Source: a virus (taxonomy: Duplodnaviria; Caudoviricetes). Taken from it: a stretch of 60,396 nt of DNA. Of this stretch, positions 6,545 through 60,396 are shown in pieces; position 1 is the first letter of the stretch, and the number at the start of each line of letters is the position of its first letter. The notes under the pieces are model-generated. The model saw nothing but the letters and a program-made list of their open reading frames with translations, ran no database searches and was not told the origin of the DNA. The DNA is taken from positions 1 through 60,396 of the IMG/VR virus record IMGVR_UViG_3300037848_000009, one strand, 5' to 3'. Position numbers and translations under genes: made by a program.

Positions 6545-7856
6545 GCGATGGTTGCGCCAGCAATGGCGAGCACCGCTAACGAACAGCACCGCACCACAAG
6601 CCACGAGTGAGCAGGTGCCCGTGTACATCCCGCGCGGCCCCGCTGCGGAACTGCAGGCCAATCATGCCACAGAGATTGTCATAAGCGGCCCGGCTGGCAC
6701 AGGCAAAAGTCGGGCCTGCCTGGAAAAGATGCACGTCTATGCACAACAGCACCCTCGCTTTCGTGGCCTGATCGTGCGCAAGACGCGCGAAAGCTTGAGC
6801 GAAACCGGGCTGTTTACGTATGAACAATATGTCCTCGGACGCGATCACCCGATGATTATTGATGGTAAACCTAAGCGCCGTATTCGGCAGGTCTACCAAT
6901 ACCCCAATGGTGCCGAAATCGTCATTGGCGGTATGGACAAGGCATCGAAAATTATGTCTACTGAGTATGATATAATATTTGTTCAGGAAGCCACCGAGTT
7001 GGAAGAGCAGGATTGGCAGGCGCTCCTTACCCGCCTTCGTAATCATGCACTGCCATTTCAGCAGATGATGGCAGACTGCAACCCATCAGCACCAACCCAC
7101 TGGCTGTATCAGCGATGTATGAGCGGGCGCGCCACGCTCCTGAATAGCCGCCACGAGGACAACCCGCGCCTCTACCAGGATGGTAAGTGGACAGAAGAAG
7201 GGAAAGAATACCTCTCCATTCTGGACAGTCTGACTGGAGCGGAATACCACCGGTTGCGACTCGGCCAATGGGTGCAATCGAGCGGGTTGGTGTATGATGT
7301 GTGGAGTGATGACAATGTCAGCGAGGATGCTGAGCATCAGCCAGGTGCAGGTGAGGTATATTGGGGGGTTGACGATGGCTATAGTGGTCAGATCGACCCG
7401 CGCACCGGGCTCTACACGGTAGACAGTCACCCCCGCGCATTCGTCCTGGCACAGTTACGAAGCAATGGGCGGCTCTGTGTGTTTGCTGAGCACCTGACTG
7501 TCAAAACACTCAGCGACAGTCATCTGCAGCAGGTGATGGCGTTAGGGTATCCCATGCCAGCGTATGCCGCCGTCGATAGTAGCGCAAGCGAGCTAAAACG
7601 CCGCATCTTTGATGTAGGCGTGCCAGTCAAGAGCAAGCCGGTGAATGTGGAGGAAAGTATCAAAGAGACGCGCCGCTGGCTTGCCCCCGATACGAACAAC
7701 TGGCGACGCATCCTGGTGCATCCGCGCTGCAAACATCTGCGCAATGAGATGATAAGCTATGTGCGCAACCCGGCGACCGGCACGCCATACAAGCAGCACG
7801 ATCACTGTCTGGACGCCTTACGGTATCTCACGCATGCATTGCGATACGAGGTGTGA
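6501..7856 (+). CDS. terL: Terminase large subunit
   Basis: Walker A SGPAGTGKS, IIFVQEATE, CNP, GVDDG, DHCLDALRY; exact start uncertain. Confidence 0.95.
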   Translation: MRHWNMPATLTQQSRRWLRQQWRAPLTNSTAPQATSEQVPVYIPRGPAAELQANHATEIVISGPAGTGKSRACLEKMHVYAQQHPRFRGLIVRKTRESLSETGLFTYEQYVLGRDHPMIIDGKPKRRIRQVYQYPNGAEIVIGGMDKASKIMSTEYDIIFVQEATELEEQDWQALLTRLRNHALPFQQMMADCNPSAPTHWLYQRCMSGRATLLNSRHEDNPRLYQDGKWTEEGKEYLSILDSLTGAEYHRLRLGQWVQSSGLVYDVWSDDNVSEDAEHQPGAGEVYWGVDDGYSGQIDPRTGLYTVDSHPRAFVLAQLRSNGRLCVFAEHLTVKTLSDSHLQQVMALGYPMPAYAAVDSSASELKRRIFDVGVPVKSKPVNVEESIKETRRWLAPDTNNWRRILVHPRCKHLRNEMISYVRNPATGTPYKQHDHCLDALRYLTHALRYEV

Positions 7857-17327: not shown

Positions 17328-17987
17328 GTGGCGATGTATGCCGCGCTCATCATCACCTATAATCGCGCAAGCACGCTGGCCGAGACGCTGGCGTGCTTGC
17401 GGCGCAACCTCACACCCCAGCCAGATATCTGGATTGTGGCAGACGATGGGAGTACCGATAATACCCGCGAAGTTGTACACCAGTTTGGTGCCGACCTGGT
17501 GGTGACACAGCGCGGCGGGATGGGGAAAAATACAAACGCAGGACTCAGGGCGGCGTGGCAACAGACGCCGCTCGTGTTGCAAGTCCAGGATGATCGGCAA
17601 TTGCAAAAGCCGCTTAATCTCTCTGATATGCTCTTACGATTGGGGGAGCTAACATCGTCCTGGATACGGCTTGATACGCTCTTCAAAGGGCGTGCCATCA
17701 CCGCCACCATGGAGCGCGGGTATTGGCGAATGAACTGGAGTGACGAGTATCTGTATATAGCAAGCGATGCCCCACATATCAAGCACCGCAGATTTCATGA
17801 CGTTGCTGGGATGTATCCAGAGGATAAAAAAATAGGACACACGGAAAATGCCTGGTGTGCCCGGTGCCGGTCGTTCGGTCTCGATGGTGTATTGGCCGCG
17901 CCGCTTATTCCGGCATTCGGGCTACCTGATCATCTGTGGAAAAACGCCGGGCCGGATGTGGGGAGTTGGCAGGAGAAAGGCTTATGA
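17328..17987 (+). CDS. Glycosyltransferase family 2
   Basis: IITYNR, IVADDGSTD, QDD. Confidence 0.88.
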   Translation: MAMYAALIITYNRASTLAETLACLRRNLTPQPDIWIVADDGSTDNTREVVHQFGADLVVTQRGGMGKNTNAGLRAAWQQTPLVLQVQDDRQLQKPLNLSDMLLRLGELTSSWIRLDTLFKGRAITATMERGYWRMNWSDEYLYIASDAPHIKHRRFHDVAGMYPEDKKIGHTENAWCARCRSFGLDGVLAAPLIPAFGLPDHLWKNAGPDVGSWQEKGL

Positions 17988-20758
17988 AGCGCGTCTGGTT
18001 GCCATCGGCTGATAATAATGCAGTGGGTGGTGTTGGACAGGTCATTGCGGCGCAACGTCGTCACCTGCCGGGGCTTGGCTGGCAGGTGGTTGACGATCCG
18101 AACACAGTAGACATTATCGCAGTGCATATCACGGCTCAGCGAGACGTGCCGCGCATAGACGTGCATCATTTGCACGGCCTGCATTATGATAGCGATACCC
18201 CTGGCGACCGTGCCATCAACCGCAAACTTATCCACACGATTCGGGAGGCGCGCGCGCATACACTGCCATCGGAGTGGAGTGCAATGGCGTTGCGGCGCGA
18301 TTTACGCTTACACCCTGACATTATCCCCAACGGGATTGAGGTGGCGAACTGGCAGCCGGGCAACACCCAATCGTATGCCCTCTGGAATAAGACACGCAGC
18401 AGTCGTATTTGCGACCCACGCCCCGCCTATGAACTGGCATCTCAGGGTGTGCCAGTGGTCTCAACATTTTTACCAGACAATGTGGCACGCCCTGACAATG
18501 CGCGTGTGATTGGTCGTCAATCGTTTCAAGATATGCGGCAAACCATCCAGGATGCCGGGGTCTATATTGCAACCACACGCGAGGTCATGGCGGTCGGGGT
18601 GCTTGAAGCAATGGCTGCCGGGGTGCCCATCCTTGGATACACTGGCAGTGGAACGGAAGAGGTCGTCACGCATAAGGTCACGGGATGGCTGGTTGAAGAA
18701 GGCGACATTGCCGGTCTGGTTGCGGGCTATTACTGGCTGATGGAACACCGCTCCGAAATAAGCCGCGCCTGTAGAGATGCTGCACAGGCATACGATTGGG
18801 CGCGTATCATACCGCGTTATGCAGCACTTTACGAACGCGTATTGCACCAGCGCGAACACGAGCCGACAGGAGTCAGTATTGTCATTCCCTGCTATAACTA
18901 TGGGCGGTTTCTTGGTGATGCCATTCAGAGTTGTCTCAAGCAGACAGAAAAGCCAGCAGAAATTATTGTCGTTGACGATGGGAGCACCGACAATACCCGC
19001 GAGATTGCTCAACGTTATCCCGTGACATATATCTATCAGGAGAATGCAGGGCCAGGAGCCGCCCGCAATCGCGGCATTGCCCACGCCACACAGCCGTATA
19101 TTGTCTGTCTGGACGCTGACGACTGGCTTGATCGCGCGTATGTTGCCACGTTGCGCCCGGCATTGCACGCCAATCGTCAGTTGGGCGTTGTCTATAGCGG
19201 TATTACCTGGGAGCGCCCGGACGGGGCGCGGCGGTCACCAGGTGCTTCGTTTTCCTGGGAGCGTGAGGTCAAGGGCAATGCCATTACGTGCGCTGCAATG
19301 TTTCGACGAGAAATGTGGGAGCGCGCAGGGGGAGAAACCTTTACCTACAAACGTGCTGAGGATTACGAGTTCTGGTTGCGTGGTCTATCAGTTGGCTATG
19401 ACGCGCAACGTGTCACAACTGATGGCCTGTTCCACTACCGGAGCCATCCTGACCACAAAAGCTTGAAGCACAAATATACTGGCGTGTATGACTGGCTGCC
19501 GTGGGCATACGATGGCGACTACCCAGCAGGCGCGCCCGCCAGTGAGCAACCGCGTGTGCGTTCCTATCGCAAACCGCAGGTAAGTATCATTATTCCAGTC
19601 GGGCCGGGGCATGCCACCGATCTGCCGACCGCTTTAGAAAGTCTGCTCGGCCAATCGTTCCGCAATTGGGAAGCTATTGTCATAGATGACACCCATGACG
19701 GTATTCCTGCCTACCTGTTACGTCCGTATCCATTTGCTCGCGTCTTGCGTACCAGCGGTGCAACGGGAGCCGGGGCCGCGCGTAATGTCGGAATTGACGC
19801 CGCGCGTGCATCGTTGTGCCTGTTCCTGGATGCCGATGACTACCTGATACCTGCTGCCCTGCAGGCGTTTTTTGAGGGCTACCACAACAGCGATGCATGT
19901 TATGTCTATAGCGATTGGTTCACCTGGCATCATGGCAAGATTGCACCGCAGCAGTGCAAAGCATATTCACAGATAGGATGGCTTGAGCACGGCTGGCACG
20001 CGGTCACGGTGCTGATGCACATTGACCATGCTCGCACCATCCGGTTTGATGAGGATTTGCCATCCTGGGAGGATTGGGATTTCTTTGCGCGCTGCGCTAT
20101 CAATGGCATCTGCGGCGAGCGTATTGCGCTGCCGTTGCTGGGGTATCAGCCGAGCAAAGGCGCTCGTCGCCAATATGCGGTCAGGCACCAGGCCGAATTA
20201 AAATCGCTCCTGGAAGAGCGCTACAAACCGTATATGTCAGGAGGGAAAGAGATTATGCCGTGTTGTGGGGGAAAGGGCAAGCAGCCGACACCGCAGACAG
20301 TCAAAGAAGGGGCCACAACCGTGAGCAATGACAATAAGACAACCTACGTGCGTATGGAATACACAGGCAAAAACACGGGAGCCGTCACATTTTCAGGCAC
20401 AAATGGGCGCTCGTATCGCGGCGGGGCCAACCCGACCAACCGTTTTGCCAATGTCCACAAAGACGATGTGGAACGAATGGCCAATACGGGGAAGTGGAAG
20501 GTCGTTAAACGCCCTCAGTCAAGCGTTCATCGTGGGGCGCAACCAGTTCCGCCGCCACAGCCTGCGCTCGTTGCGGAGCCTGATGAGGAACATACAACAG
20601 AAGACGAAAATTTGCCGCACGACATGGAACAGTATTTTGCCGTCATGCTAGATGATGACGTACCCACAACAGAAGGCGAGCCAGACGAACCAGAAGAACC
20701 AGAAGAAACCGCACCAGCATCGCGCCGCAGGAGGAGGCCGAAACGTGTCCGAGAGTAA
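17984..20758 (+). CDS. GT4-GT2-GT2 glycosyltransferase fusion with C-terminal extension
   Basis: LEAMAAGVPI (GT4); two GT2 domains (SIVIPCYN..DDGSTD..LDADD; SIIIPV..FLDADD). Confidence 0.9.
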   Translation: MKRVWLPSADNNAVGGVGQVIAAQRRHLPGLGWQVVDDPNTVDIIAVHITAQRDVPRIDVHHLHGLHYDSDTPGDRAINRKLIHTIREARAHTLPSEWSAMALRRDLRLHPDIIPNGIEVANWQPGNTQSYALWNKTRSSRICDPRPAYELASQGVPVVSTFLPDNVARPDNARVIGRQSFQDMRQTIQDAGVYIATTREVMAVGVLEAMAAGVPILGYTGSGTEEVVTHKVTGWLVEEGDIAGLVAGYYWLMEHRSEISRACRDAAQAYDWARIIPRYAALYERVLHQREHEPTGVSIVIPCYNYGRFLGDAIQSCLKQTEKPAEIIVVDDGSTDNTREIAQRYPVTYIYQENAGPGAARNRGIAHATQPYIVCLDADDWLDRAYVATLRPALHANRQLGVVYSGITWERPDGARRSPGASFSWEREVKGNAITCAAMFRREMWERAGGETFTYKRAEDYEFWLRGLSVGYDAQRVTTDGLFHYRSHPDHKSLKHKYTGVYDWLPWAYDGDYPAGAPASEQPRVRSYRKPQVSIIIPVGPGHATDLPTALESLLGQSFRNWEAIVIDDTHDGIPAYLLRPYPFARVLRTSGATGAGAARNVGIDAARASLCLFLDADDYLIPAALQAFFEGYHNSDACYVYSDWFTWHHGKIAPQQCKAYSQIGWLEHGWHAVTVLMHIDHARTIRFDEDLPSWEDWDFFARCAINGICGERIALPLLGYQPSKGARRQYAVRHQAELKSLLEERYKPYMSGGKEIMPCCGGKGKQPTPQTVKEGATTVSNDNKTTYVRMEYTGKNTGAVTFSGTNGRSYRGGANPTNRFANVHKDDVERMANTGKWKVVKRPQSSVHRGAQPVPPPQPALVAEPDEEHTTEDENLPHDMEQYFAVMLDDDVPTTEGEPDEPEEPEETAPASRRRRRPKRVRE

Positions 20759-32890: not shown

Positions 32891-33112
32891 CTATACCTGG
32901 CTTTCCAGATATTGCAACACCTTTACCACATCATACCCGTCGGCAACGACCAAGTCATACAGGTTTTTGTGCATGAAAGCTTCATAAACTGTGCTGAACT
33001 CTTGCGCTGTATCTACAATCGACAGCGCGTCGGGCGTGTGTACTGTAATGCGTATGATGCGGTCTGCTGTCTGGCGTACGATTGCCTCTTGTGCTGGTTG
33101 TGGTTTGTTCAT
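32891..33112 (-). CDS. Hypothetical protein
   Basis: AGGAG RBS before MNKPQP. Confidence 0.55.
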   Translation of the reverse strand: MNKPQPAQEAIVRQTADRIIRITVHTPDALSIVDTAQEFSTVYEAFMHKNLYDLVVADGYDVVKVLQYLESQV

Positions 33113-33223
33113 CGCGCTGTCTCCTGTGTTGCTATGGGCGGCTTGCGCCGCCCGTGTATAAGTTTGATTCCGACTAATAGTCTGTGCCAAGCAAGTGGTG
33201 GTATCACTAGGGGTTTGTATGGT

Positions 33224-33385
33224 TGGAAACTGGCAGGAGTCGAACCTGCACCTCCAGACATCTACACCCTCGTGATAGTCATTGCCTCTGTCAAGACTTT
33301 GAACTATCCGTAAAGTGGAACACAGACACCCGTGACAGCGGATACCTGTGTACCTGGCGTCCTGCCGTTAAGACGACAGTTTCCA
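33224..33385 (-). ncRNA. tRNA-shaped RNA with a ~95-nt structured insert in place of the anticodon loop
   Basis: Acceptor GGAAACTG/CAGTTTCC, D arm GTCT-TAACGGCA-GGAC, stem CCAGG/TCTGG, T arm GCAGG-TTCGACT-CCTGC. Confidence 0.8.
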
Positions 33386-33427
33386 CGTGGTTGCCGTTAC
33401 AATGCCACGGACACGGGCGCAAATCTA

Positions 33428-33697
33428 TCAGTCATTATTGTTGTAATCGCACACCGCTTTTGCAGCCCTCGCATAATCATCATACGTATGCGGTTTGCCG
33501 TCAATGACTGCGCGGGTTTCACATCCAAAAGGGCCGTACCCGTGAGTAATCTCGACGTGTTGTACCCCGTTTTCAATCGCCTGAACAAGAAATGCTATTT
33601 CCCGTTCGTTGGGGAAGAACTCCCCGAAGTCGTTGTATAGGTCGGGGTTTTCTTTAGCAATTGCCAAAGCCTTTTCACGTGCTGTTGTGTTTGTCAT
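33428..33697 (-). CDS. Hypothetical protein
   Basis: AAGGAG RBS. Confidence 0.7.
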   Translation of the reverse strand: MTNTTAREKALAIAKENPDLYNDFGEFFPNEREIAFLVQAIENGVQHVEITHGYGPFGCETRAVIDGKPHTYDDYARAAKAVCDYNNND

Positions 33698-33785
33698 CTG
33701 TCTCGTCTCCTTGTCTGTGTTCGTTGTCTCTCAACTGACAATAGGGGATATGATAGAAGATTGCTACGAAACCGCTATCTGCGCA

Positions 33786-34187
33786 TTACGATCCTGTATC
33801 AAATCGCTTGACATACGACAGGATATCAACCTCATCAGCCGTTGCAAGCCATTTCAAACCGTTTGTGCCTTGCAGCGTCACCAGCCTATAGTCGTCAAAC
33901 GGGGCGAGTGCTGCCCAATACTTACAAAGCTTAGGCGATGAAAGTACGCGCTGCTCTGCAAGATGTTGCCATGCTTCCAGGTCGCCATTTTCGCGGTAGT
34001 CGGCCTTGCGTACCTTGGGATGGCGCGCGCCAATGGTGTCACGATAGCCCGGTGCGCTCATCTCAGGCGGGCCAGCCGCTACCCAGGCGTCACGCAATCG
34101 GCGCGATGTAAATCTCAGCACCCGATCCGCTCGCTGTCCATTGTTAACGACGTTACCACCATAAGCGTGTTCGATTGCGTAAAACAT
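33786..34187 (-). CDS. Hypothetical protein
   Basis: GAGG RBS. Confidence 0.7.
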   Translation of the reverse strand: MFYAIEHAYGGNVVNNGQRADRVLRFTSRRLRDAWVAAGPPEMSAPGYRDTIGARHPKVRKADYRENGDLEAWQHLAEQRVLSSPKLCKYWAALAPFDDYRLVTLQGTNGLKWLATADEVDILSYVKRFDTGS

Positions 34188-34243: not shown

Positions 34244-34597
34244 TTACAGATAGTCAGAGGCTTCTAGCTCCTGCCATGCCGCCTCAATCGCCCATTGCTT
34301 ATAAGATGAACGATTGAATAGCTCGTCGTCTGGATTGTCGCCATAGGAAACGACGAGTTCATTCACAAGCTTTTCCCGCTTCCCTTCCCAGTCACACCTA
34401 AGGTCGTCTGCGTATTCTTGCGCCGCCGCTTGTGTGTCGAAGATGCGCTGGCCTTCCATATCCGCCGACCATAGGGCAGTGCCACTTTTAATCTCATACA
34501 CTGATTTCGGAAGCATACCGTAATAGATATACGTCGATACCGTCCATTTACCCCTCCAGTTTTCTTCGTTCTGATACTTCGGGTTTGGTCCTCCCAT
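34244..34597 (-). CDS. Hypothetical protein
   Basis: AGAAAGGA RBS. Confidence 0.7.
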   Translation of the reverse strand: MGGPNPKYQNEENWRGKWTVSTYIYYGMLPKSVYEIKSGTALWSADMEGQRIFDTQAAAQEYADDLRCDWEGKREKLVNELVVSYGDNPDDELFNRSSYKQWAIEAAWQELEASDYL

Positions 34598-34952: not shown

Positions 34953-35024
34953 CGTTGTTTCCCTTCTGTATCGCTCATATCGTTTTCTATGTCCCTATTA
35001 TAGCGCGAACAGGGGTAGAGTTGT

Positions 35025-35066
35025 ATGATAAATTCCTGATAGACACCTGATAAATACCTGATAAAA
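35025..35066. repeat. Four 11-bp-spaced (CC)TGATA boxes upstream of a minus-strand -10; putative operator
   Basis: atgataaatt-cctgatagaca-cctgataaata-cctgataaaa. Confidence 0.55.
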
Positions 35067-35102
35067 GTGACAGGGGTATCTTGCGCGTACAAAATCCAGA
35101 CA

Positions 35103-35140
35103 ACACAAAACCCCGCCTTTCTGGGGTAAAACTGGCGGGG
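35103..35140 (-). terminator. Intrinsic terminator after the FtsK operon
   Basis: CCCCGCC..GGCGGGG stem followed by TTTTGTGT on the minus strand. Confidence 0.6.
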
Positions 35141-35197
35141 CCTGTGCTATGCACGTACTTGATTTATGCCGCCCGTCTTTCGGACGACCTGGTGCTA

Positions 35198-35356
35198 TTA
35201 TAGCATAGCAGCAACAATAGTCGCTGCAATAACTGCCGAGGCAAACGCGATGCCCCGCTGGTGAGCACGTGAGCCATTGCGCTGCGCATACCACACGATA
35301 GCAAATACAAGCAATGCAACAACGATGAGGCGCGCCAGGTAGATCAGGTGGTGCAT
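35198..35356 (-). CDS. Small two-helix membrane protein
   Basis: MHHLIYLARLIVVALLVFAIVWY..; TGATG coupling. Confidence 0.6.
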   Translation of the reverse strand: MHHLIYLARLIVVALLVFAIVWYAQRNGSRAHQRGIAFASAVIAATIVAAML

Positions 35357-35520
35357 CACTCCCGCTCGCGTGTCGCAATGCCACGCATCGCCCCGCTCAC
35401 CCGGCTCGCGGCATCGTTCACACCCTGCGTGTAGCCGCGTCCGTAGCCAATGTTCCAGCCAGCAACCAGACCAGCGATCAGGACGATGATCAGCACGATG
35501 ATGTAAGGGTCCAGATTCAC
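35356..35520 (-). CDS. Small membrane protein (54 aa, below the ORF-track cutoff)
   Basis: MNLDPYIIVLIIVLIAGLVAGWNIGYGRGY; GTGA overlap with the ATPase stop. Confidence 0.65.
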   Translation of the reverse strand: MNLDPYIIVLIIVLIAGLVAGWNIGYGRGYTQGVNDAASRVSGAMRGIATRERE

Positions 35521-36995
35521 GCGCCCACCTTTCTTTCTTGCAGCGCACCACGCACCACGGCCTGCACCTGCTCGCTGGCTTCCGTGTAGCGCCTTCCGTT
35601 CTTTGCTCCGCTGATTTCACGTGCAATTTCTGCCATACTTGCCCCGTTTGCGAACATATCCAGAATACGGCGTTCTGCTGCAGTATACTCTTTTGCCGTG
35701 GGGTTGCCAGTGCCTTGCCGAGGTAGCGCCGGTTCCAGGGTTTCAGCTTGACTGTGCAGGTCATCTGGCAATAGCCTGGCAATACCCTGGTTGCTTGCGA
35801 GCGGGACCCTGGCAAGGGTGGTCTGTGGCCTTGCGGCGCTGCGCAAGAGTACCACGCCCTGCCCAAGTTGGCGCTCATAGGTGGCAATATCCTTTTTGCT
35901 CATATCGAGTAACTGGACCGCGCTATGCCCGGCGCCGCCAGAATAGTATGCGGTGCGCAGGTTCTCACGGATTTCGCCGCCGGTTTGTAAGGTTTTGGTG
36001 AGCAGGTCTTGCGAACTGGTCACGAGATACAGTCGCACCTTGCGACCCTCCCTGAGTAGGCTTCCCAGCGTGTCCATAGCACCAGGGACGTTGGCAACAA
36101 TGGCTGGCAATTCGTCCACATACGCCACGAGCGGCGCGCCAGGGCGCTGGCCTGCGTTGCGCAGGTCGTAGCGCCGCGTCATTTCATCAGCGAGCCAGCG
36201 AAACAGGTCCTCTATCTGGCCTGCCTTGACTGCCGGTGTCAGGTGCAACCGCTGCGCTATGGCGCGCCAATCTTCCCCGCTCTCGGCATCGTATGCAGCG
36301 AAGTGGGGGTCTGCTATCACACACTGCACATTGCACGCCAATAGCTGAGAGAGCAGCAAGCGGCCCGTGTTACTCTTGCCGCCGCCGGTGGCTCCTACCA
36401 GCCCGGTGTGCATCAGATTTTTGGCGCTGACCGTGATGGGCTGCCCATCGTCTCCAATGGCAAGCAGGATGCTGTGGGGCGTCGGGGTATGGCTGATGCT
36501 TGCCAGGTCAACAGGGCCGGGTAAGGTCGGGGATTGCGCCACATCACCCGGCAATACAGATGCCGCCTCATGCTTCGCGTGCTGTGTATAACTGAGGCTG
36601 TGCGGGACGTGGGGGTGCCGGTTATTGGCATCAGCCACGAGTACCTGTGCTTGCAACCCAAGCTGGCGCATTGCGTAGCGCCGATCCCACTGCACGCCCT
36701 GTGCTGCGTTGATAGCGGCCAGCACCAGACTGTAGCCGACACCTGCCAGGAACAGAAACACGAGCATACCGAATGCCACGCTGCCATAGGTCTGGGCAGC
36801 AGACACAAGCGGCTCGTGTTGTTGCTGCAAAGCATCCCAGCGCTGCGCTTGTTGTAGCCGTAGCTCTGCGTGACCTTGCTCATAGGGTAGCATCGCACTG
36901 CGAGCGGCTACGGCGTCGGGGCTGGTGTAGGTAACGATGCCCCACGCGACCAGGGCAAAAGCAGCGATAGTAATGATAAAGGGGGCAAACTTCAT
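35517..36995 (-). CDS. Membrane-anchored FtsK/HerA-family ATPase with C-terminal HTH
   Basis: Two TM segments, GATGGGKS, YVDEL, EGRK..SSQ. Confidence 0.85.
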   Translation of the reverse strand: MKFAPFIITIAAFALVAWGIVTYTSPDAVAARSAMLPYEQGHAELRLQQAQRWDALQQQHEPLVSAAQTYGSVAFGMLVFLFLAGVGYSLVLAAINAAQGVQWDRRYAMRQLGLQAQVLVADANNRHPHVPHSLSYTQHAKHEAASVLPGDVAQSPTLPGPVDLASISHTPTPHSILLAIGDDGQPITVSAKNLMHTGLVGATGGGKSNTGRLLLSQLLACNVQCVIADPHFAAYDAESGEDWRAIAQRLHLTPAVKAGQIEDLFRWLADEMTRRYDLRNAGQRPGAPLVAYVDELPAIVANVPGAMDTLGSLLREGRKVRLYLVTSSQDLLTKTLQTGGEIRENLRTAYYSGGAGHSAVQLLDMSKKDIATYERQLGQGVVLLRSAARPQTTLARVPLASNQGIARLLPDDLHSQAETLEPALPRQGTGNPTAKEYTAAERRILDMFANGASMAEIAREISGAKNGRRYTEASEQVQAVVRGALQERKVGA

Positions 36996-37023
36996 ATGTC
37001 AGACCTCCATATGATAAGATAGA

Positions 37024-37097
37024 GTTGGCAGGCCAGCGGGGGACAGACCCCCTCGTTATGCCCTGCGTCACCAGGGCGGCCTGCCAACAGTATAGCA
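37024..37097 (-). other. Three-way-junction structure with overlapping extended -10 (TGcTATACT, 37089-37097)
   Basis: GTTGGCAGGCC/GGCCTGCCAAC 11-bp inverted repeat enclosing two hairpins. Confidence 0.6.
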
Positions 37098-37126
37098 CAT
37101 TCGGCCTGAGAGTACTATTCTTCCTT

Positions 37127-37765
37127 TTACAGTAAACATTTTGCCTGGTGCTCTGGCAACCAGTAGGGCGGGCGGATACCCATCAGGATGCCTGTTTCAT
37201 CCGGCAATGCTCGCATCTGTTTACCATCGTCGTCATATTCGCTCCAATCTGCGTGCCACGGCTCAATAAGCCAATCCACGCGCCCCCATCCCTGGCTGGT
37301 CTTTTTGCCGATAAACAGCATTGTTCTGAGGAGCGCCGCAATGCGATCCGCATCTCCCACCGCGTACCAGGAGACGAACAGAGCGTGCCGGTAGAACACA
37401 GGCATATGATACGATTTATAGCGCCCCGCCTCAACAAGCACTTTACCACGCCTGTTCTTAAAGTCCACAAGCCCACTGTGTTGATCAAAGCGTTTGTTCC
37501 AATGGTCGGTCCCCTCTGTTACCGTGCCGTGCCAGTGCGCAAAAGAGCACGCATAGTACCAGTGTTCGCCTATACCACGCCGATCAAGTGGCAGATCGAC
37601 CAGGGGCACGTCAAGTAACGCGCCCGAAACCGTGACATCTTGCGGGCCGTATGTTTCACGCATTGCCTGATACAGCAAGATGCCATCCAGGGGCAACGTC
37701 GCATCACTCAATACAGGTGTGCGCAATTTAGCTGTGATGCGAAGCGGCTCTAATCCTCCAGACAT
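37127..37765 (-). CDS. csf3: Type IV CRISPR Cas5-group protein Csf3
   Basis: PLRITAKL..LPLDGIL..YACS..WYAVGD..IGKKTSQGWGRV. Confidence 0.88.
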   Translation of the reverse strand: MSGGLEPLRITAKLRTPVLSDATLPLDGILLYQAMRETYGPQDVTVSGALLDVPLVDLPLDRRGIGEHWYYACSFAHWHGTVTEGTDHWNKRFDQHSGLVDFKNRRGKVLVEAGRYKSYHMPVFYRHALFVSWYAVGDADRIAALLRTMLFIGKKTSQGWGRVDWLIEPWHADWSEYDDDGKQMRALPDETGILMGIRPPYWLPEHQAKCLL

Positions 37766-38397
37766 ATATGTCCCCATCCTTGCGTCGTGTGGCTCCCCAC
37801 GCCGCTATATTCGGCAAAACGTGCCAGTATTGCTATCCATCGTTGCGGTGCCTGCATACGATAGCGAACACGCCCGACAAAACCGTTTAACCAGTGATGG
37901 CGATAGCGTACCCGGCGCGTCTCGCCTGCCAACTCTGTGATTTTGATGTGGTCATACTGGATTTCTGGCACAGCTATATCGGTAATCACCAGCCACCGCC
38001 GCAACACGGCACCAAAAACCACGTTCGGCGCTGGCGAGACGTGACATACACTCTTGCTGCGCACAAAAAAAGGCGACAAAAAGCGTAGCGTTATGTATTG
38101 CTGTGGCTCTGTTGTGTCGATAAGTGATTGATACGACACAGGCGCGCTGCTACGTTGGACTAATGACGATTGATTAAGCGCAGCGCATAGTTCCCCCGTC
38201 AAGGCAGACAGCCAGAGCAATGAGCATCCATCGAGATATGCAGCATAGGGCGGTAGTCCAGTATTATCATGTAGACGTGTTGCCAGGTCGGGCGCGGTCT
38301 GACGAAGGACATGCAACGCTGCATAAAGCGCACCTTCATATTCCGTACATGCTTCCTGGTGGCGCCAGGGCGTGACGTAATGAGCGAGATTACACAT
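37750..38397 (-). CDS. cas6: Cas6-family RAMP endoribonuclease
   Basis: ITLRFLSP, GFVGRVRY, terminal G-loop FAEYSGVGSHTTQGWG. Confidence 0.85.
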   Translation of the reverse strand: MCNLAHYVTPWRHQEACTEYEGALYAALHVLRQTAPDLATRLHDNTGLPPYAAYLDGCSLLWLSALTGELCAALNQSSLVQRSSAPVSYQSLIDTTEPQQYITLRFLSPFFVRSKSVCHVSPAPNVVFGAVLRRWLVITDIAVPEIQYDHIKITELAGETRRVRYRHHWLNGFVGRVRYRMQAPQRWIAILARFAEYSGVGSHTTQGWGHICLED

Positions 38398-39136
38398 ACT
38401 GGCGCACCTCCGGTATTTCGGCAGCAAGTTTATTCCACAGTTCAGGGTAATTTCGCTTCAGCCAGGCATAACGTCCCCACCGGCGTTTCGTCTCGCCTGC
38501 CCAATACGAGACACGCTGGTCATCCTCTGGCATATCCCACATCTTGTCATATGTGCCAGCATACGGCACATTATTACTCACGATATAGGCCCACACATCA
38601 TCATATGTCCAGTGCCCTAATGGTTGGCATTGCCACACGCCGTACTGCCGCGAAAAAAACAGCGCGCCATTGTAGCGCACGCTCTGGCGGCGCCCGTAGC
38701 TCTCTGCTGCCCGGATGCCATACACACAACCGTCATAGCCATATTCGGTAATGAGTGCCCTCACTGGCTGATAGACTGTGCTTTTCATCGTCTGTCGGTC
38801 CAGATCAGCGCCGCCTTCAAGGCCAAATCGTTTCAGTGTTTCAAGAAACGGCTCAGATGTGGGGTAGCGCAAACAATTCGGCGTATTGCCTATCAGGTCC
38901 GATACCTCTGGAAAACAGTTGTCCGCATCCAGGTAAACAGCAGGCACAGCAGGCGCTTGCTCACGCACCAGGTGGAGTACACACACACTATCTTTGCCGC
39001 CGCTGAATGCGATGTAGGGTCGCTCGCAATGTGACAACCAGTTATCAATAATGCCGCGGCTGTATTGGACGCGCTGGCGAAAACCCTTTAAGCGGCTGTG
39101 AGTTTCAAAACGCAGCCGCACAACGTCTGGCATCAT
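38390..39136 (-). CDS. cysH: CysH/PAPS reductase-like accessory protein of type IV-B
   Basis: AFSGGKDS PP-loop, GIRAAES..R, PLGHWT..DVWAYI. Confidence 0.9.
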   Translation of the reverse strand: MMPDVVRLRFETHSRLKGFRQRVQYSRGIIDNWLSHCERPYIAFSGGKDSVCVLHLVREQAPAVPAVYLDADNCFPEVSDLIGNTPNCLRYPTSEPFLETLKRFGLEGGADLDRQTMKSTVYQPVRALITEYGYDGCVYGIRAAESYGRRQSVRYNGALFFSRQYGVWQCQPLGHWTYDDVWAYIVSNNVPYAGTYDKMWDMPEDDQRVSYWAGETKRRWGRYAWLKRNYPELWNKLAAEIPEVRQYV

Positions 39137-40104
39137 TGCATTGCCCCCAGGAACGCACGAATATCATTGCCGTGCTGCTGTAAATGCTGCTGATATTGCG
39201 CACCCAACGGTAGCGATAAAGCATCCCCCTGCACTTCGGTGCGGCTGTCAATGCGCAGCCAGTTGTCGAACTTGACCGCCACTTTGCCTAACCCGACAGC
39301 ACTTTTGCCGCCAATATAGGGGCGCTTGCTGAACTCAACCAGGGTCGTCGCAAACGCCTCAAATTCGACCTCGGACACATCATTCAGTGCAAGTTCCCAA
39401 TAGAAGCGCGTGCCCGCCGCCAGTGTTTCTACGTAGTACATCATCTGCTGATGCTGGCCTGTATCGCGTTGCGGCTCTGTTAACGCGGTCGCCTCCGCCT
39501 TCTCGCGGCGTGTATCATCAAGCAGCTTGCGCGTCTCGCCAGTGAGCAACGGCTGATAATGTTCGTTTTTGGCATCATCTTTGCGCGTGTACATCTCCTC
39601 CTGCAGATACTCCCAGATGGATGTCGTGGCGTGTAACTGATACGCCTCCGGCAACAGGTGGGTAGTCTCCTCGCAGATAGGGATCAGTTTGCCTGTGATT
39701 AACTTCCCCGGCATAATCTGATTGCCCATCCCGCCACCAAAAACGCCCACCAGCGGGATAAGCGAACGCACGCGGCGAGCGGCGTCCACGTCCAAACCGT
39801 GCCCACCACTTTTACTCAGCGAGCCGCCAGAAAACAGGAAATAAAACGCGCTGAGGGGCATGCCAGATACTGTACTATCCTGCTCCACGCCGTAGCCAAG
39901 CTGGCGACACATATGCAGCATGCCAATATCGCGCAACAGGCCGCGCAACCCATTACCGCTAATGACTGGCACATCCTCAACGCTGCCGTTGGGTTGGACG
40001 ATCTTCTCACGGCGTAGCTTCTGGTTGATACCAAACGACTCGCCGCCATTGTGTGTGATACTACTTAGGGCAGTGACCACACCCTCAAAATAATATGTCT
40101 GCAT
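39133..40104 (-). CDS. csf2: Type IV CRISPR Cas7-group backbone Csf2
   Basis: TALSSITH, VPVISGNGLRGLLRD, LFSGG, QMMYYVE, IGGKSAVGLG. Confidence 0.92.
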   Translation of the reverse strand: MQTYYFEGVVTALSSITHNGGESFGINQKLRREKIVQPNGSVEDVPVISGNGLRGLLRDIGMLHMCRQLGYGVEQDSTVSGMPLSAFYFLFSGGSLSKSGGHGLDVDAARRVRSLIPLVGVFGGGMGNQIMPGKLITGKLIPICEETTHLLPEAYQLHATTSIWEYLQEEMYTRKDDAKNEHYQPLLTGETRKLLDDTRREKAEATALTEPQRDTGQHQQMMYYVETLAAGTRFYWELALNDVSEVEFEAFATTLVEFSKRPYIGGKSAVGLGKVAVKFDNWLRIDSRTEVQGDALSLPLGAQYQQHLQQHGNDIRAFLGAMQ

Positions 40105-40472
40105 TAAAAAAGCTCCTCTCCTGTCCGCGCCACTGGCTGTTCAGCTTCTATTGCGTCGCGCCGTTCTTCGTTCATCACGCGCACCAGTAGCACCAGGAGT
40201 GCTGTTTCGTCGCGTAAGGTTTTGAGGATGGCGCGGTCCTGACCACTTGTAAGCACGGTCTGAACGGTTTGCGTGCCGTCTTTGCGTAGCCGAATATCAA
40301 GCCGCCTGCACAGCACATCAAAAAAAGTCGAAAGTTTGCTGGTGTAGGCTGCGCTCTTGATCTGATTCTGAAACTGTTCCCAGATGTTCCTCGCATACTT
40401 GCTCTTGTAACCGTCCGCTATCCCCCGCCACAGGGGATAGAGTAGCTTCTCCGCTATCTCCTGATGCTCCAT
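40104..40472 (-). CDS. cas11: Cas11-like small subunit (type IV-B)
   Basis: 122-aa helical protein between csf1 and csf2; GGAGG RBS. Confidence 0.75.
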   Translation of the reverse strand: MEHQEIAEKLLYPLWRGIADGYKSKYARNIWEQFQNQIKSAAYTSKLSTFFDVLCRRLDIRLRKDGTQTVQTVLTSGQDRAILKTLRDETALLVLLVRVMNEERRDAIEAEQPVARTGEELF

Positions 40473-41112
40473 AGTCTTCCTCCTTCTGTGCCAGAAATAT
40501 GGCGAGTTGGAGCAGTAGCGAGCCGCGCAACGGACTGACCTGCTGCTCTAATGTGTGCCAGCGCTCGATTCCAAACTGGCGTATACGATGCTGCCCATAG
40601 CGCCCCGTTTCGATTTCGGATTTCGTGAAGCCCAAATAGAGGGCGTCTACAAGTTCTTGCGTGGCCTGCCAATGGGGCACATCAGGGCGTGTTGCTTGCT
40701 CTTCAATCTGCCACCAGCCAGGCTGGGCACGAAATATGATATGCTTCTGCCCCGATGTGGCAATGATTGCCACGTCGGCAGTTGGCAGCAATGCTCGCAT
40801 TTGCCGCTTGTCGCCTTTGCTGAGCGGGTGCCAGACGCCTGCCACAACAAAATGGCTATAGTTGCGCATGCGTTGCGGCTTGTCTTTGCCAGTGCGAGCC
40901 TGGAGCAGTTCGGAGGCGTCGTGCACACAGAACTGGCACGCGTGGCACAGGATGGTGCCGGGTCGCAGCTTGTCATGATCGGTGAATGTGTCTTTGACCC
41001 ACCGGGCAAATTCAATGCCCACACCCGGTTGCCCACACATTCGACACACGCCCGATTGCGCGCCTGTCATTGACGGCTCACTGGCAGCCTGATAGATAAG
41101 ATGTGTGCTCAT
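40318..41112 (-). CDS. csf1: Type IV CRISPR large subunit Csf1
   Basis: CRMCG, FTDHD, CHAC zinc finger, SGQKH, GFTKSEIETGRY; 3' end overlaps cas11 by 155 nt. Confidence 0.85.
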   Translation of the reverse strand: MSTHLIYQAASEPSMTGAQSGVCRMCGQPGVGIEFARWVKDTFTDHDKLRPGTILCHACQFCVHDASELLQARTGKDKPQRMRNYSHFVVAGVWHPLSKGDKRQMRALLPTADVAIIATSGQKHIIFRAQPGWWQIEEQATRPDVPHWQATQELVDALYLGFTKSEIETGRYGQHRIRQFGIERWHTLEQQVSPLRGSLLLQLAIFLAQKEEDYGASGDSGEATLSPVAGDSGRLQEQVCEEHLGTVSESDQERSLHQQTFDFF

Positions 41113-47550: not shown

Positions 47551-47745
47551 TCAACAGCGGCGGAACTGCATTACCACATCCTGCACAGGCGCTATGAGCA
47601 TCTGTGTATCAGGCAGGTTGCGTGTGTGCCATTCCGCTATGGCGGCGTCATATTCGACCGCCCATAGCGGCGTATAGCCTGCCTGAAGCGCGCCAATGTC
47701 CGCACCGCCGCCGCCGCTAAAAAGTGAGGCAAAAGTAGGCATCAC
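47551..47745 (-). pseudogene. Truncated C5-cytosine methyltransferase
   Basis: SLFSGGGG and AVEYD motifs only; stops before the PC motif. Confidence 0.78.
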
Positions 47746-48785
47746 GCGGACTCTTCTCCAAACATCGGCAACATCTGTTGTGCGAGCCTGCCCACAATCG
47801 TCTCGCAGTATCCTGCGTCCATTTCGACACCGATAGACCGCCGCCCCAGGTCACGAGCAGCAACCAGGGTTGTGCCGGAGCCTGCGAAACAATCCAGGAT
47901 TACCGCGCCGGGGCGCGTGCTTGTCTCGATAATATCCATCATCATTGCAAGTGGCTTTTGTGTCGGGTGCTTGCCTGGATACGGTGCAACTGTGTGATAA
48001 TGCCACATGTCCTCACGATGGCGGGGCATCGCCTGAAACGGGCGGCGGAGGTCCTCGTACTCGCGGCGGAGGTCCTCGTACTCGCGGCGGAGGTAGTCGC
48101 CTGGTCTGTTTTGGTTCAGTAACTCGCGCAACCGTTGGTATGTTTCGGCTGTTGGTAAACTGCTACCCTCTTCCCACCGATAACACAACGCGGTGCCTTG
48201 TGTTGGGTCTTTGCTTGATACAAAACCTAATGCCACTTCAACTTCGCGGCGGGTCAATCCGGCGCGCTCGCGTTCTTGTTTAATATACGCACCAACAACA
48301 TTGCCATACACTTGTTTGTGTAGTTCGCGGCATTGACTACCATAACCTGCCCATTCATCGGCCACACTATCGCTCCCGTACTGCTCAGCAAAAATACACG
48401 CCTCCCAGGGTGACAGGTACGACCGCAGTGCATCGGTTTGCGCTTTCTGGTGCCACCCATCGCGCTTGTACCATCTGATGTTATTTAGTACGGCAAAATA
48501 CTCAGCAATCAGCAACTCAATGTGTGTGGACATATCCGGCGATGCAAAACAGTATACGCAACCGTTTGGCACCAACACCCGCCGCCACTCTGCGACAATT
48601 GTGCGCAACCAGTCCAGATAATGCGCCCGCTTTGCCCACTGCCTATCCCAGTCGTCATCTTTAACTTTATAGTACGGCGGGTCGGTCACTACCGCATGCA
48701 CACTTGCATCGGGCAACGTGCGCAATACGTCCAGTGCATCGCCGTGGTAGAGCGTGATGTGATTGTCAGTGTGGTATGGTTTCAT
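47742..48785 (-). CDS. N6/N4 DNA methyltransferase with inserted HTH
   Basis: TDPPY, HPTQKP, DCFAGSG; ERERAGLT..RWEEG HTH; 21-bp tandem repeat at 48042-48093. Confidence 0.92.
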   Translation of the reverse strand: MKPYHTDNHITLYHGDALDVLRTLPDASVHAVVTDPPYYKVKDDDWDRQWAKRAHYLDWLRTIVAEWRRVLVPNGCVYCFASPDMSTHIELLIAEYFAVLNNIRWYKRDGWHQKAQTDALRSYLSPWEACIFAEQYGSDSVADEWAGYGSQCRELHKQVYGNVVGAYIKQERERAGLTRREVEVALGFVSSKDPTQGTALCYRWEEGSSLPTAETYQRLRELLNQNRPGDYLRREYEDLRREYEDLRRPFQAMPRHREDMWHYHTVAPYPGKHPTQKPLAMMMDIIETSTRPGAVILDCFAGSGTTLVAARDLGRRSIGVEMDAGYCETIVGRLAQQMLPMFGEESA

Positions 48786-49381
48786 AGTGTGTCCTCCACT
48801 TGGGCCACAGCGTCAAACAGGGGCATCTGCCCATCGGGGCGGCGATGAATGGTCACGAACGTCAACGGCGATCCGATACTCAACCCGAACGTGTACCAGC
48901 AAGTTGGAAACTGCGCACCGTTGCCACTCCAGCCCGCGTTGGGCATCTTGAAGTTGATACGCTTGTCGGGCATCAGGATTTCGATACCGTACTGCCTGAA
49001 CAGGCGTTGCGCGGTGCTGGCGGCGATCATCTCGACGGGCATCAACAGCGCAAAGGGCTTGCCAAGCGCGTAACAGCGTGCCAACCAGTCGTATTTGATG
49101 CTGTAGGGTGGGTTGGTGACGATCACTGTCCAGTCTATCGGCGGCTCGTAGTGGAAAAAGTTCTGCCCGGTCAGGATGTCCGACTGCGCCACCGCGTAGC
49201 CGTGGTCGTAGAGCGCCGAGGACAGGTACGCCTCGCCTGCGGCTGGCTCCCAGATGACCGTCTGCTCATCTGGCGGTGGCAGGTAGGGCAGCAGGGGGTC
49301 GAGCGCATATGTCGGAGTCTGGCAGCGGTCAATCAGACTGCTCTTATCGGGCGTGCCTGTGTGGTTGCGTTTGGGTTTCAT
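48782..49381 (-). CDS. Small amino-DNA methyltransferase
   Basis: TP, WEPAAG, TNPPY. Confidence 0.82.
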   Translation of the reverse strand: MKPKRNHTGTPDKSSLIDRCQTPTYALDPLLPYLPPPDEQTVIWEPAAGEAYLSSALYDHGYAVAQSDILTGQNFFHYEPPIDWTVIVTNPPYSIKYDWLARCYALGKPFALLMPVEMIAASTAQRLFRQYGIEILMPDKRINFKMPNAGWSGNGAQFPTCWYTFGLSIGSPLTFVTIHRRPDGQMPLFDAVAQVEDTL

Positions 49382-50289
49382 AGTGTGTCCTCCACGCCTA
49401 TCATCAGCAGCGGATTGTGCTCTGCATCCTCTGCTGCCTGATCAGTGCAGTCAGAGCAAAACGCAAACATATCCATCTGCTCACTGGCAACGCGAAGTTG
49501 CTTCTTGCAGCCGCCCCAGGTAGCGCACAGGCCGCGCCGTGCGCATTCGGCAGCCAGCGCGTCAATGCGTGCAGCGAAGTCGGGATAATGATGGCGTATC
49601 TGCTCAAGGCGCGCCGCGCCACCATTGCCCGCGCCGCACTCGCATTCGCCAGAATGTCCCAGGAGCACCGACACGGGGTTGCGTTCGATACCGTGCTGCT
49701 CGAAATACGACAGCAGATCGGCGTGCGTCCAGTGGATGACGGGGTTGGCCCATGTCATGGTGCCTCTGCGTTCATACTCTGGCCTGTTTTTTCGTTTGCG
49801 GCTCTCAGCGCGCCGCATGCCTGTCGCCAGTAAAACATGTAGCCCTCCCCATTGTTCACGCTTGTACCGTTGGAAACTGTATTGCTTCAGGTCGGTATAG
49901 ACGATGCCATGCCCCTGGCCAGACACAAAGCCGCGCCATATACCTAACACTAGGGCTTCGTATATCTTCGGATTTGGCGTGCCATCCTCATACGTGTTCT
50001 CTGCTGCACGATAGATATACAGCGGAAAGCCGTGCTCCTGACAATGCCTGACCACATACTCTTGCGTGTCTGGTATGCCGATGCCGGTATCGAGGTGCAG
50101 TACCTCGAACCGATAACCGTGTTCACGGGCAAACCGGGCCGCAATGTGCAATGTTGCAAGGCTATCATCGCCGCCGGAGAATGCAGCAGTGATGACCTCT
50201 GGTTGCCGCTCGGCACACGCTGCTGCCAGTATCTCATCTGGCGTTCGTTGTGGGTTGCCGTTCAGGTCAAGTTGTGTGTAGCTCATCAC
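49378..50289 (-). CDS. PAPS reductase/PP-loop family protein
   Basis: AFSGGDDS, DTG, GMRRAES, SGECEC. Confidence 0.88.
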   Translation of the reverse strand: MMSYTQLDLNGNPQRTPDEILAAACAERQPEVITAAFSGGDDSLATLHIAARFAREHGYRFEVLHLDTGIGIPDTQEYVVRHCQEHGFPLYIYRAAENTYEDGTPNPKIYEALVLGIWRGFVSGQGHGIVYTDLKQYSFQRYKREQWGGLHVLLATGMRRAESRKRKNRPEYERRGTMTWANPVIHWTHADLLSYFEQHGIERNPVSVLLGHSGECECGAGNGGAARLEQIRHHYPDFAARIDALAAECARRGLCATWGGCKKQLRVASEQMDMFAFCSDCTDQAAEDAEHNPLLMIGVEDTL

Positions 50290-60097: not shown

Positions 60098-60183
60098 GAT
60101 ACGCCGGGGCGCGGCTCTGCCTGTGTTACAGGTCCGTACAGTTTCAGGGGCCGCGCCTGACATAATCAGAAAGGGGAAGCAGA

Positions 60184-60396
60184 ATGAGTGTGTACGACAC
60201 AGAACAGCAGTTGCGTGAAATCCTTAAAGCGCACAAGCTCTGGCTCGATGATCCGGACCAGGCTGGGGCAGCCCGTGCCAACCTGCGTGGAGCCGACCTG
60301 AGTCGGGCTGACTTGAGCGGGAATGACTTGAGCGGGGCTGATTTGCGTGGAGCCGACCTGAGCTTAGCCAACCTGCGTGGAGCCGACCTGAGCTTA
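60184..60396 (+). CDS. 3'-partial pentapeptide-repeat protein (variant of 686..1336)
   Basis: [29 protein letters not shown]; runs off the window. Confidence 0.8.

Follow-up and report, generated by a model that had tools for sequence, protein, structure and literature searches.

Mimicry of transfer RNA (tRNA) by non-coding RNAs is already known. In transfer-messenger RNA (tmRNA), an RNA of bacteria and phages, the ends form a tRNA-like acceptor and T arm, and a large insertion takes the place of the anticodon arm. In a laboratory design, a foreign structured RNA is mounted on the anticodon stem of a tRNA, and the cell processes and stabilizes the product. The packaging RNA (pRNA) of phage phi29 carries a three-way junction and two mutually complementary loops that link molecules hand in hand. 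In YrlA/Y RNAs of bacteria and phages, one domain has been described as mimicking the tRNA D arm, T arm, and acceptor; RNase P cleaves one of these RNAs, which also acquires CCA (PMC4201824). Published accounts further cover the laboratory tRNA scaffold, used for recombinant RNAs (PMC3753655 and PMC3401473), bacterial and phage tRNAs with 8/4 and 9/3 acceptor/T-stem branches (PMC5389517), and, as a mention, the pRNA three-way junction (PMC5733572). The DNA analyzed here, referred to as the window, is the complete 60,396-base record of a bacteriophage from tidal-flat sediment (IMG/VR record IMGVR_UViG_3300037848_000009, handle G000; 100% complete). Its minus strand encodes a 162-nucleotide (nt) tRNA-shaped RNA in which a forked domain of 94 nt occupies the position of the anticodon loop. 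We favor, with moderate confidence, the reading that this RNA is a stable tRNA-scaffolded non-coding RNA encoded by a stand-alone phage cassette of 227 nt.

The phage RNA resembles tmRNA, YrlA, and the laboratory scaffold in manner and fails the test run for each of the natural families. It differs from tmRNA in having no tag reading frame or pseudoknots and an insert of 94 rather than ∼300 nt, and in keeping a full D arm and anticodon stem, neither of which tmRNA is known to have. ARAGORN (-m) called no tmRNA and Rfam gave no tmRNA match, in agreement with an earlier reading of the locus, hereafter the sequence-only reading, which had dismissed a tmRNA. Whereas YrlA RNA is described as ending in a Ro-binding stem, the ends of the phage RNA form the acceptor and its extra domain sits on the anticodon stem. 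Identity with YrlA/Y RNA was rejected, with no Rfam match and no TROVE/Ro60 gene in this phage or in the second phage introduced below (2 control genomes were positive). The pRNA of phi29 has no tRNA body, unlike the phage RNA, for which pairing between molecules is only predicted; neither pRNA nor any other Rfam family was matched, and the phage, with a large terminase of ordinary type, is not phi29-like. The 8/4 and 9/3 tRNAs decode and have a 12-bp branch, whereas the branch here is 9/5 or 8/5. The synthetic scaffold is a laboratory design of the same architecture, to which the phage RNA would be the natural counterpart. No natural RNA with a domain replacing the anticodon loop of an otherwise complete tRNA was found in the open-access literature searched.

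A tRNA-shaped body with a forked domain on the anticodon stem

The tRNA parts named in the sequence-only reading (acceptor, D arm, anticodon stem, 4-nt variable loop, and T arm) were all recovered from the sequence, from ARAGORN run with introns allowed (-i), and from the minimum free energy (MFE) fold (Table 1). The four stems, the GG of the D loop, and the T loop UUCGACU are those of the cloverleaf of the tRNA family RF00005. The acceptor stem comprises seven canonical pairs extended by a G:C and a U:A, the two linker bases after the acceptor helix are U and C, and G26 lies between the D arm and the anticodon stem. The eighth acceptor pair (G:C) would equal G(−1):C73, the hallmark of tRNA-His. 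There is no 7-nt anticodon loop; the strands of the anticodon stem are separated by 94 nt (33352-33259), close to the replacement of ∼95 nt that had been proposed. The full 162-nt RNA folds at −62.7 kcal/mol (z = −3.25).

With default settings ARAGORN found 0 tRNA genes in the whole window, and when introns of 0 to 150 nt were allowed it made exactly one call, c[33224,33384], in which the acceptor has 8 bp and the "intron" 87 nt; thus no second tRNA gene was identified in the phage in either mode. Run in intron mode, ARAGORN repeated this call in the second phage and made none in 40 of 40 dinucleotide-shuffled windows. Rfam at gathering thresholds returned no match anywhere in the window, and the RNA matches no described family. 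When E values up to 10 were admitted for 33100-33520, a local tRNA match was obtained (19.8 bits against a gathering threshold of 29) that covered only the 3′ (T-arm) half, together with one chance match. Self-cleaving ribozymes (hammerhead, twister, pistol, hatchet, and hepatitis delta virus-like) were rejected, as no family matched at E up to 10; on inspection, the junction strands U, UC, and UAGAUG lacked the hammerhead core.

A covariance model, R1, was built from the two known copies, in the window and in the second phage, and scored these at 205.6 and 200.6 bits. Among its other 35 rows, 25 were full-length matches (model positions 1-166, 10 to 34 bits) in the other loci compared. In both of the R1-to-tRNA alignments shown the insert was deleted, and the one match that was checked, in phage POI1126, proved to be a tRNA without annotation. 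A reciprocal test thus also finds the body tRNA-like, since R1 aligns real tRNAs over their full length with the insert deleted. Compared half by half with phages, the 5′ half weakly resembled the D arms of tRNA-Gln genes (E value, 2 to 8), and the 3′ half resembled the T arms of several isotypes, with the unannotated POI1126 tRNA as the top match; no isotype could be assigned from these matches. That tRNA, apparently unannotated in the deposited record of Ochrobactrum phage POI1126 (locus L023, 1457-1534; record region 6932-7009), has the anticodon CAT and an encoded ACCA and lies between gp08 and gp07.

In the MFE fold the cloverleaf is kept and the insert forms a three-way junction that sits immediately on the anticodon stem, with joining strands J1/2 (U), J2/3 (UC), and J3/1 (UAGAUG). 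The sequence-only reading had closed the two hairpins with a TACAC/GTGTA helix. This could not be upheld: forcing the helix costs 8.8 kcal/mol (−53.9 against −62.7), its pair probabilities are 0.00, and the U34C change of the second phage also breaks its first pair. The stability of the insert is non-random, as folded alone it has an MFE of −35.7 kcal/mol (z = −4.0), equaled by 2 of 2,000 shuffles. The loop complementarity noticed earlier was confirmed. CTGTCA (33338-33333) and TGACAG (33293-33288), as RNA CUGUCA and UGACAG, are exactly complementary over 6 nt; allowing one mismatch on each side lengthens the complementarity to 10 of 12 positions. The predicted loop-loop duplex has an energy of −6.3 kcal/mol, or −10.5 kcal/mol with flanking bases, and a pair of hairpin loops sharing at least 6 complementary bases arose in 9 of 2,000 insert shuffles (0.45%). 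Pairing of the loops may occur within or between molecules; as the two hairpins are unequal (P2, 13 bp; P3, ∼20 pairs) and joined by a linker of 2 nt, pairing between molecules, into dimers or chains, would be no less likely than intramolecular pairing. No further copy of the insert was found in either phage genome, and it is thus not a multicopy mobile repeat. A protein-coding role was rejected, since the overlapping ORFs on both strands cross the edges of the conserved block and tblastn matches in the second phage merely mirror DNA identity.

Table 1. Features of the RNA cassette and of neighboring genes (window coordinates)
Feature	Position	Strand	Basis or remark
tRNA-shaped RNA, 162 nt, acceptor to acceptor	33224..33385	minus	ARAGORN -i, MFE fold, model R1
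Promoter-like module GCCCGTGTCCGTGGCATTGTAACGGCA, 31 nt	33392..33422	minus	5′ edge of 227-nt cassette
Spacer ACCACG, 6 nt, module to first acceptor base	33386..33391	minus	identical in second phage (L002)
Acceptor stem, 9 bp, TGGAAACTG/CAGTTTCCA as DNA	33385-33377 with 33232-33224	minus	sequence
Acceptor 5′ strand UGGAAACUG, partner strand CAGUUUCCA (RNA)	33377..33385	minus	pair probabilities 0.52-0.97
D arm, 4-bp stem GUCU/GGAC, loop UAACGGCA (DNA TAACGGCA) with GG	33359..33374	minus	
Anticodon stem, 5 bp, CCAGG/UCUGG	33353..33357 with 33254-33258	minus	ARAGORN and fold
Insert, 94 nt, replacing 7-nt anticodon loop	33259..33352	minus	MFE fold
Hairpin P2, 13 bp, 6-nt loop CUGUCA at 33333-33338	33320..33351	minus	pair probabilities 0.82-1.0
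Hairpin P3, ∼20 pairs, two bulges, 2x2 internal loop, UGACAG at tip (33288-33293)	33265..33317	minus	
Variable loop AGGU (4 nt) and T arm GCAGG-UUCGACU-CCUGC	33233..33253	minus	sequence, Rfam local tRNA match, ARAGORN
Conserved 3′ trailer	33196..33223	minus	opens with ACCA right after 9-bp stem; stops at cassette edge
ORFs flanking the RNA	33428-33697 and 32891-33112	minus	same strand both
HerA/FtsK-like ATPase, downstream of Cas cluster	35517-36995		
Csf3/Cas5	37127-37777	minus	TIGR03116, E 7e−17
Cas6-domain protein	37750-38427	minus	PF10040, E 8e−15
CysH-like PAPS-reductase-domain protein	38390-39136	minus	
Csf2/Cas7	39133-40104	minus	TIGR03115, E 8e−21
Two unassigned ORFs upstream of Cas cluster	40104-40472 and 40318-41112		

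The 227-nt cassette and its upstream module

BLAST comparison of the two phage records delimited a conserved cassette (33422..33196; 227 nt) that is 96.5% identical in the second phage contig, with neither flank matching. The second phage is represented by one IMG/VR contig (G001, locus L002; 75 kb, 71% complete). Elsewhere the two phages share few genes, at 24 to 50% protein identity except for a DNA methylase (71%) and a 199-amino-acid ORF (88%), and the cassette is the most conserved DNA common to both. Its surroundings in the second phage, replication genes on one side and a portal gene on the other, are unrelated to those in the window, and a terminator (hairpin plus T-run) occurs within about 45 nt after the RNA. 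The methylase (47742-48785) and ORF 48782-49381 of the window, which alone among the proteins are highly conserved between the two phages (71% and 88%), adjoin a further PAPS-reductase/PP-loop domain protein (49378-50289, minus strand), the second in this phage.

Six tidal-flat metagenome runs contain words of the stretch, and four were compared with the window (X2 to X5). The X2, X4, and X5 contigs, from three further runs, lose the match at 33422, and the X2 contig also does so at 33196, with loose ends beyond. Six sites vary in the 162-nt RNA (C27U, U34C, C45U, G57C, U90C, and C102U, in RNA numbering). The metagenome runs carry the six variants of the second phage or subsets of them: X4 and X5 are without U34C, and X3 shows only C45U, plus one unlisted change. 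Five of the six sites lie in stems, U34C being in a linker, and pairing is kept in four of these five via G-C to G-U changes; in the second phage, C27U in the D arm leaves a G-U pair, and U90C and C102U in P3 both still pair. No variant falls in the acceptor, T arm, anticodon stem, either loop, proximal P3, J2/3, or J3/1, and the loop CUGUCA is invariant across all variants. This variation is compatible with the structure and is no proof of it.

Relatives were sought by several routes. Neither a 301-nt query compared by BLAST with 50,697 phage records and Escherichia coli genomes nor the 227-nt cassette compared with plasmids (PLSDB) identified a relative, and the insert alone gave only chance matches among phages (E value, 0.9 to 3). 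An IMG/VR pattern scan for the T arm plus acceptor found no relative beyond the second phage, as did scans for an insert 18-mer and for J3/1 plus T loop with free stems. The scan for both insert loops plus the T loop returned 6 other loci, all tRNA arrays, and that for the D loop plus T loop 3 others, all neighboring tRNAs. The insert pattern had 0 matches in genome contigs (185,579 genomes) and 0 in metagenome contigs, and R1 detected no further insert-bearing copy over 22 sources (251,875 bases) and records G002 to G005.

The module at the 5′ edge of the cassette is found more widely. Its core (CCGTGGCATTGTAACGGCA, 19 to 25 nt) recurs in seven further viral or metagenome loci (L016, L017, L018, L019, L020, L021, and L022). 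In L019 it lies 160 nt before three tRNA genes, in the order tRNA-Arg(CCT), tRNA-Tyr(GTA) (82 nt, with a long variable arm), and tRNA-Met(CAT); there (228-883), an 8-bp helix, AGGCAGGC/GCCUGCCU, encloses both leader and first tRNA. The L019 phage tRNAs are without encoded CCA, and since they are related, the ACCA encoded after the ninth acceptor pair of the phage RNA may be coincidental. In L016, L017, and L018 the module precedes a structured RNA of ∼150 nt, followed by a head gene (L016, 345-580; L017, minus strand downstream of 149-173; L018, 3420-3655). This RNA matched no Rfam family, and compensatory changes between L016 and L017 occur in at least one of its helices (GAAGUAGAG/CUCUACUUC versus GAAGUGGGG/CCCCGCUUC). 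L016 also carries a group I intron (926-1136; RF00028, 73.1 bits; E value, 1e−17), and its capsid gene appears to be intron-split, as the intron starts where the major-head-like frame (ORF 584-937) stops. In L021 the module is followed by a T-arm-like hairpin and the gene of a major head protein (phrog_267; E value, 1e−76); in L022 it lies 15 nt ahead of a protein start, and in X3 and X5, where only 30 loose letters are available, 8 nt before the apparent 5′ end of another tRNA. At up to 3 mismatches there is one copy in the window, and the module is likewise unrepeated in L018, L021, and L022.

The module had 0 matches in 185,579 species genomes and so is not a known host CRISPR repeat. Its position suggests a strong promoter common to several phages of one host group. 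As the acceptor starts 6 nt after it, the primary transcript would have its 5′ end at, or immediately ahead of, the start of the tRNA-like body. A simple sigma-70 scan found nothing at the module; it partly resembles the consensus of the sigma-54 −24/−12 promoter (TGGCA, then GC 12 bases on). The module shows no link with a T7-like RNA polymerase (PF00940), which was detected neither in this phage nor in record G005 (98% complete), the T7 control giving an E value of 1e−109.

The phage, its host, and the type IV Cas cluster

Structural genes occupy the plus strand of the window up to 32649, and replication and accessory genes the minus strand from ∼57170 down to 32641. Within the plus-strand block (1-32649), a protein of 940 amino acids (17936-20758) combines GT1 and GT2 glycosyltransferase domains. 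The record ends (1-900 and 59473-60396) are diverged copies of one region, 76 to 95% identical, that include pentapeptide-repeat genes (PF00805 for 686-1336); they are paralogous and not an exact terminal repeat.

Judged from gene content, the host is a bacterium, on the grounds of an Amidase_2 endolysin, the bacterial-type tRNA-Tyr with a long variable arm in L019, and the group I intron in L016; the latter two loci both carry the same upstream module as the cassette. The terminator after the RNA in the second phage was also counted toward this assignment. An archaeal virus, suggested by the type IV-B systems known from Bathyarchaeia viruses (PMC10848311), was rejected on the first three grounds. 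A phage attachment site in a tRNA gene was also rejected, since no integrase is encoded and both halves of the tRNA shape are present; neither a tyrosine nor a serine recombinase was found in the complete 60-kb record (controls positive in 14 and 12 genomes). Reverse transcriptase had no match in the phage (control positive). Family scans covered 45 window ORFs and 5 ORFs of the second phage against Pfam, 10 ORFs against PHROGs, and 10 against NCBIfam, and no tRNA- or RNA-processing enzyme was seen among them.

An array-less type IV Cas cluster lies on the minus strand (37127-41112), its Csf2, CysH-like, Cas6, and Csf3 genes 3.7 to 6.7 kb upstream of the RNA, with no CRISPR array or mini-array in 60 kb. 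Type IV-B systems that viruses carry together with CysH-like genes are on record (PMC10848311), and a type IV-B complex has been reported to assemble on non-CRISPR RNA (PMC7937560). Directly after csf3 is a 91-nt element (37010-37100, minus strand) in which an 11-bp helix, GUUGGCAGGCC/GGCCUGCCAAC, surrounds two GC-rich hairpins. Its MFE is −45.8 kcal/mol (z = −4.78), and none of 200 shuffles was equally stable; it may be a terminator or an RNA partner of the Cas cluster. The tRNA-shaped RNA was rejected as a CRISPR RNA of a type IV system, as there is no repeat-spacer array, the module had no match in 185,579 species genomes, and the second phage has the RNA without Csf2.

Alternative explanations and a possible function

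Several points count against the reading of the cassette as the source of a functional non-coding RNA. The covariation check found double-sided changes at 0 of 56 pairs, all known copies being at least 96% identical, and G57C breaks a pair in P2 (U44-G57 becomes U-C). The pattern and BLAST searches, without any diverged relative, leave a tiny family. Recent transfer, and not selection, may explain the high identity of the copies in unrelated phages, and among the six runs with the sequence there is no RNA run. Chance would be expected to yield a 6-nt complementary pair somewhere in 94 nt, and what is unusual is only that its two halves fall in the two loops; position is the sole argument for the promoter role of the module. 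The RNA could instead be the remnant of a dead tRNA gene that lost its function when a small insertion disrupted it, and that phages have carried as a passenger and exchanged recently. Near-identical copies, which are no proof of selection, no compensatory double changes, one broken pair, and a very small family would suit this explanation. It is nevertheless unlikely, given that the insert has unusual stability of its own (z = −4.0) and is placed precisely between the two anticodon-stem strands, both intact, that the cassette moves with sharp edges enclosing the promoter-like module and is the most conserved DNA of both phages, that the insert is not a multicopy mobile repeat, and that four of the five stem changes retain pairing. 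A real tRNA gene, interrupted by an intron of 87 to 94 nt and spliced to a decoding tRNA, is quite improbable. Anticodon-loop introns are known in bacterial and phage tRNA genes (bioRxiv 10.1101/2020.01.27.920355), and L016, a contig with the same upstream module, has its group I intron. The ARAGORN -i model places an 87-nt intron at 33/34 and leaves the loop UUAGAUG with U33, so the claim of the sequence-only reading that no obvious splice restores U33 did not stand as worded; the loop is nonetheless a poor one, with the anticodon AGA and a pyrimidine (U37) at position 37, and the Ser label of this splice is at odds with the short variable loop. Splices giving U33 leave only this anticodon with U37, and all other 7-nt joins give A33. 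As had been claimed, the insert is too short for a group I intron, being less than half of the 211-nt match in L016, and this candidate was rejected because RF00028 had no match in 33100-33520 at E up to 10, whereas the same library detects the L016 intron. An archaeal bulge-helix-bulge intron was likewise rejected: on inspection of the fold, 6 nt are unpaired 3′ and 1 nt 5′, so that the pair of bulges and the central helix of 4 bp that make up a 3-4-3 motif are missing. RtcB ligase is not encoded in the phage (control positive), and the archaeal splicing endonuclease route is not expected in a bacterial host; protein-based tRNA splicing is not known in bacteria.

Two further explanations relate the RNA to its neighbors in the window. 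It could be a cis-acting processing or stability signal of the minus-strand operon, at which RNase P and RNase Z punctuate the flanking messages and the insert is incidental. The RNA does lie between two same-strand ORFs, and no terminator-like site was found in 32900-33800. However, the neighbors in the second phage are unrelated and its RNA is followed closely by a terminator, the conserved block has its own promoter-like module, and punctuation leaves the conserved 94-nt domain unexplained; we consider this reading improbable. That the RNA is the partner of the type IV Cas cluster, with Cas6 or a Csf filament binding one hairpin, is very unlikely. It would accord with the Csf2, Csf3, Cas6, and CysH-like genes on the same strand without a CRISPR array, and the type IV-B complex on non-CRISPR RNA offers a precedent (PMC7937560). 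Against it, Csf2 had no match in the 75 kb of the second phage, which does carry the RNA; 72 kb of this contig (71% complete) lie upstream of the RNA. Five ORFs (35517-36995, 34998-35384, 34244-34597, 33786-34187, and 33428-33697) separate csf3 from the RNA, P2 and P3 are not repeats of each other, and the very stable element directly after csf3 is a nearer candidate for a Cas RNA.

The general proposal of the sequence-only reading, a natural tRNA-scaffolded, non-decoding RNA, fits the absence of an Rfam family, the tRNA-aligned body, and the discrete cassette in two unrelated phages. Of the particular roles it had put forward, a decoy for anticodon nucleases and an aptamer are candidates only, a ribozyme had no family match, and a Cas-complex ligand was made less likely by the second phage and by the element after csf3. 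For the stable tRNA-scaffolded RNA favored here, the data show its shape and stability, the edges and conservation of the cassette, and the recurrence of the module; from these we infer transcription, processing, loop pairing, and target as follows. Transcription would start at the conserved module, a few bases before the acceptor stem. The tRNA-like body, with its acceptor, D arm, T arm, and elbow nucleotides, would be a substrate for host end-processing and CCA-adding enzymes and would guard the RNA against decay. With the 94-nt forked domain in place of the anticodon loop the RNA would be unable to decode, and this domain would be the payload, exposing the loops CUGUCA and UGACAG for mutual pairing. 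The assembled RNA might then bind a host tRNA-recognizing enzyme or nuclease, or a phage protein. A more specific version, by analogy with phi29 pRNA, is speculative and rather unlikely: the tRNA-capped RNAs would link hand in hand via their loops into dimers or rings that present several tRNA bodies each and would serve as a sponge, soaking up a host factor that recognizes the tRNA shape. The targets conceivable in that version are an anticodon nuclease of a defense system, RNase P or Z, or a synthetase.

If true, the sponge version would make the element a natural RNA-only device for anti-defense or host takeover, carried as a 227-nt moron that moves between unrelated phages. The common upstream module also flags other unannotated structured RNAs in sediment phages. 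Engineers mount foreign RNAs on the tRNA anticodon stem for stability in bacteria, and a natural version would show that phages use the same trick; its payload domain would point to a host tRNA-handling enzyme or a tRNA-directed defense as a possible target.

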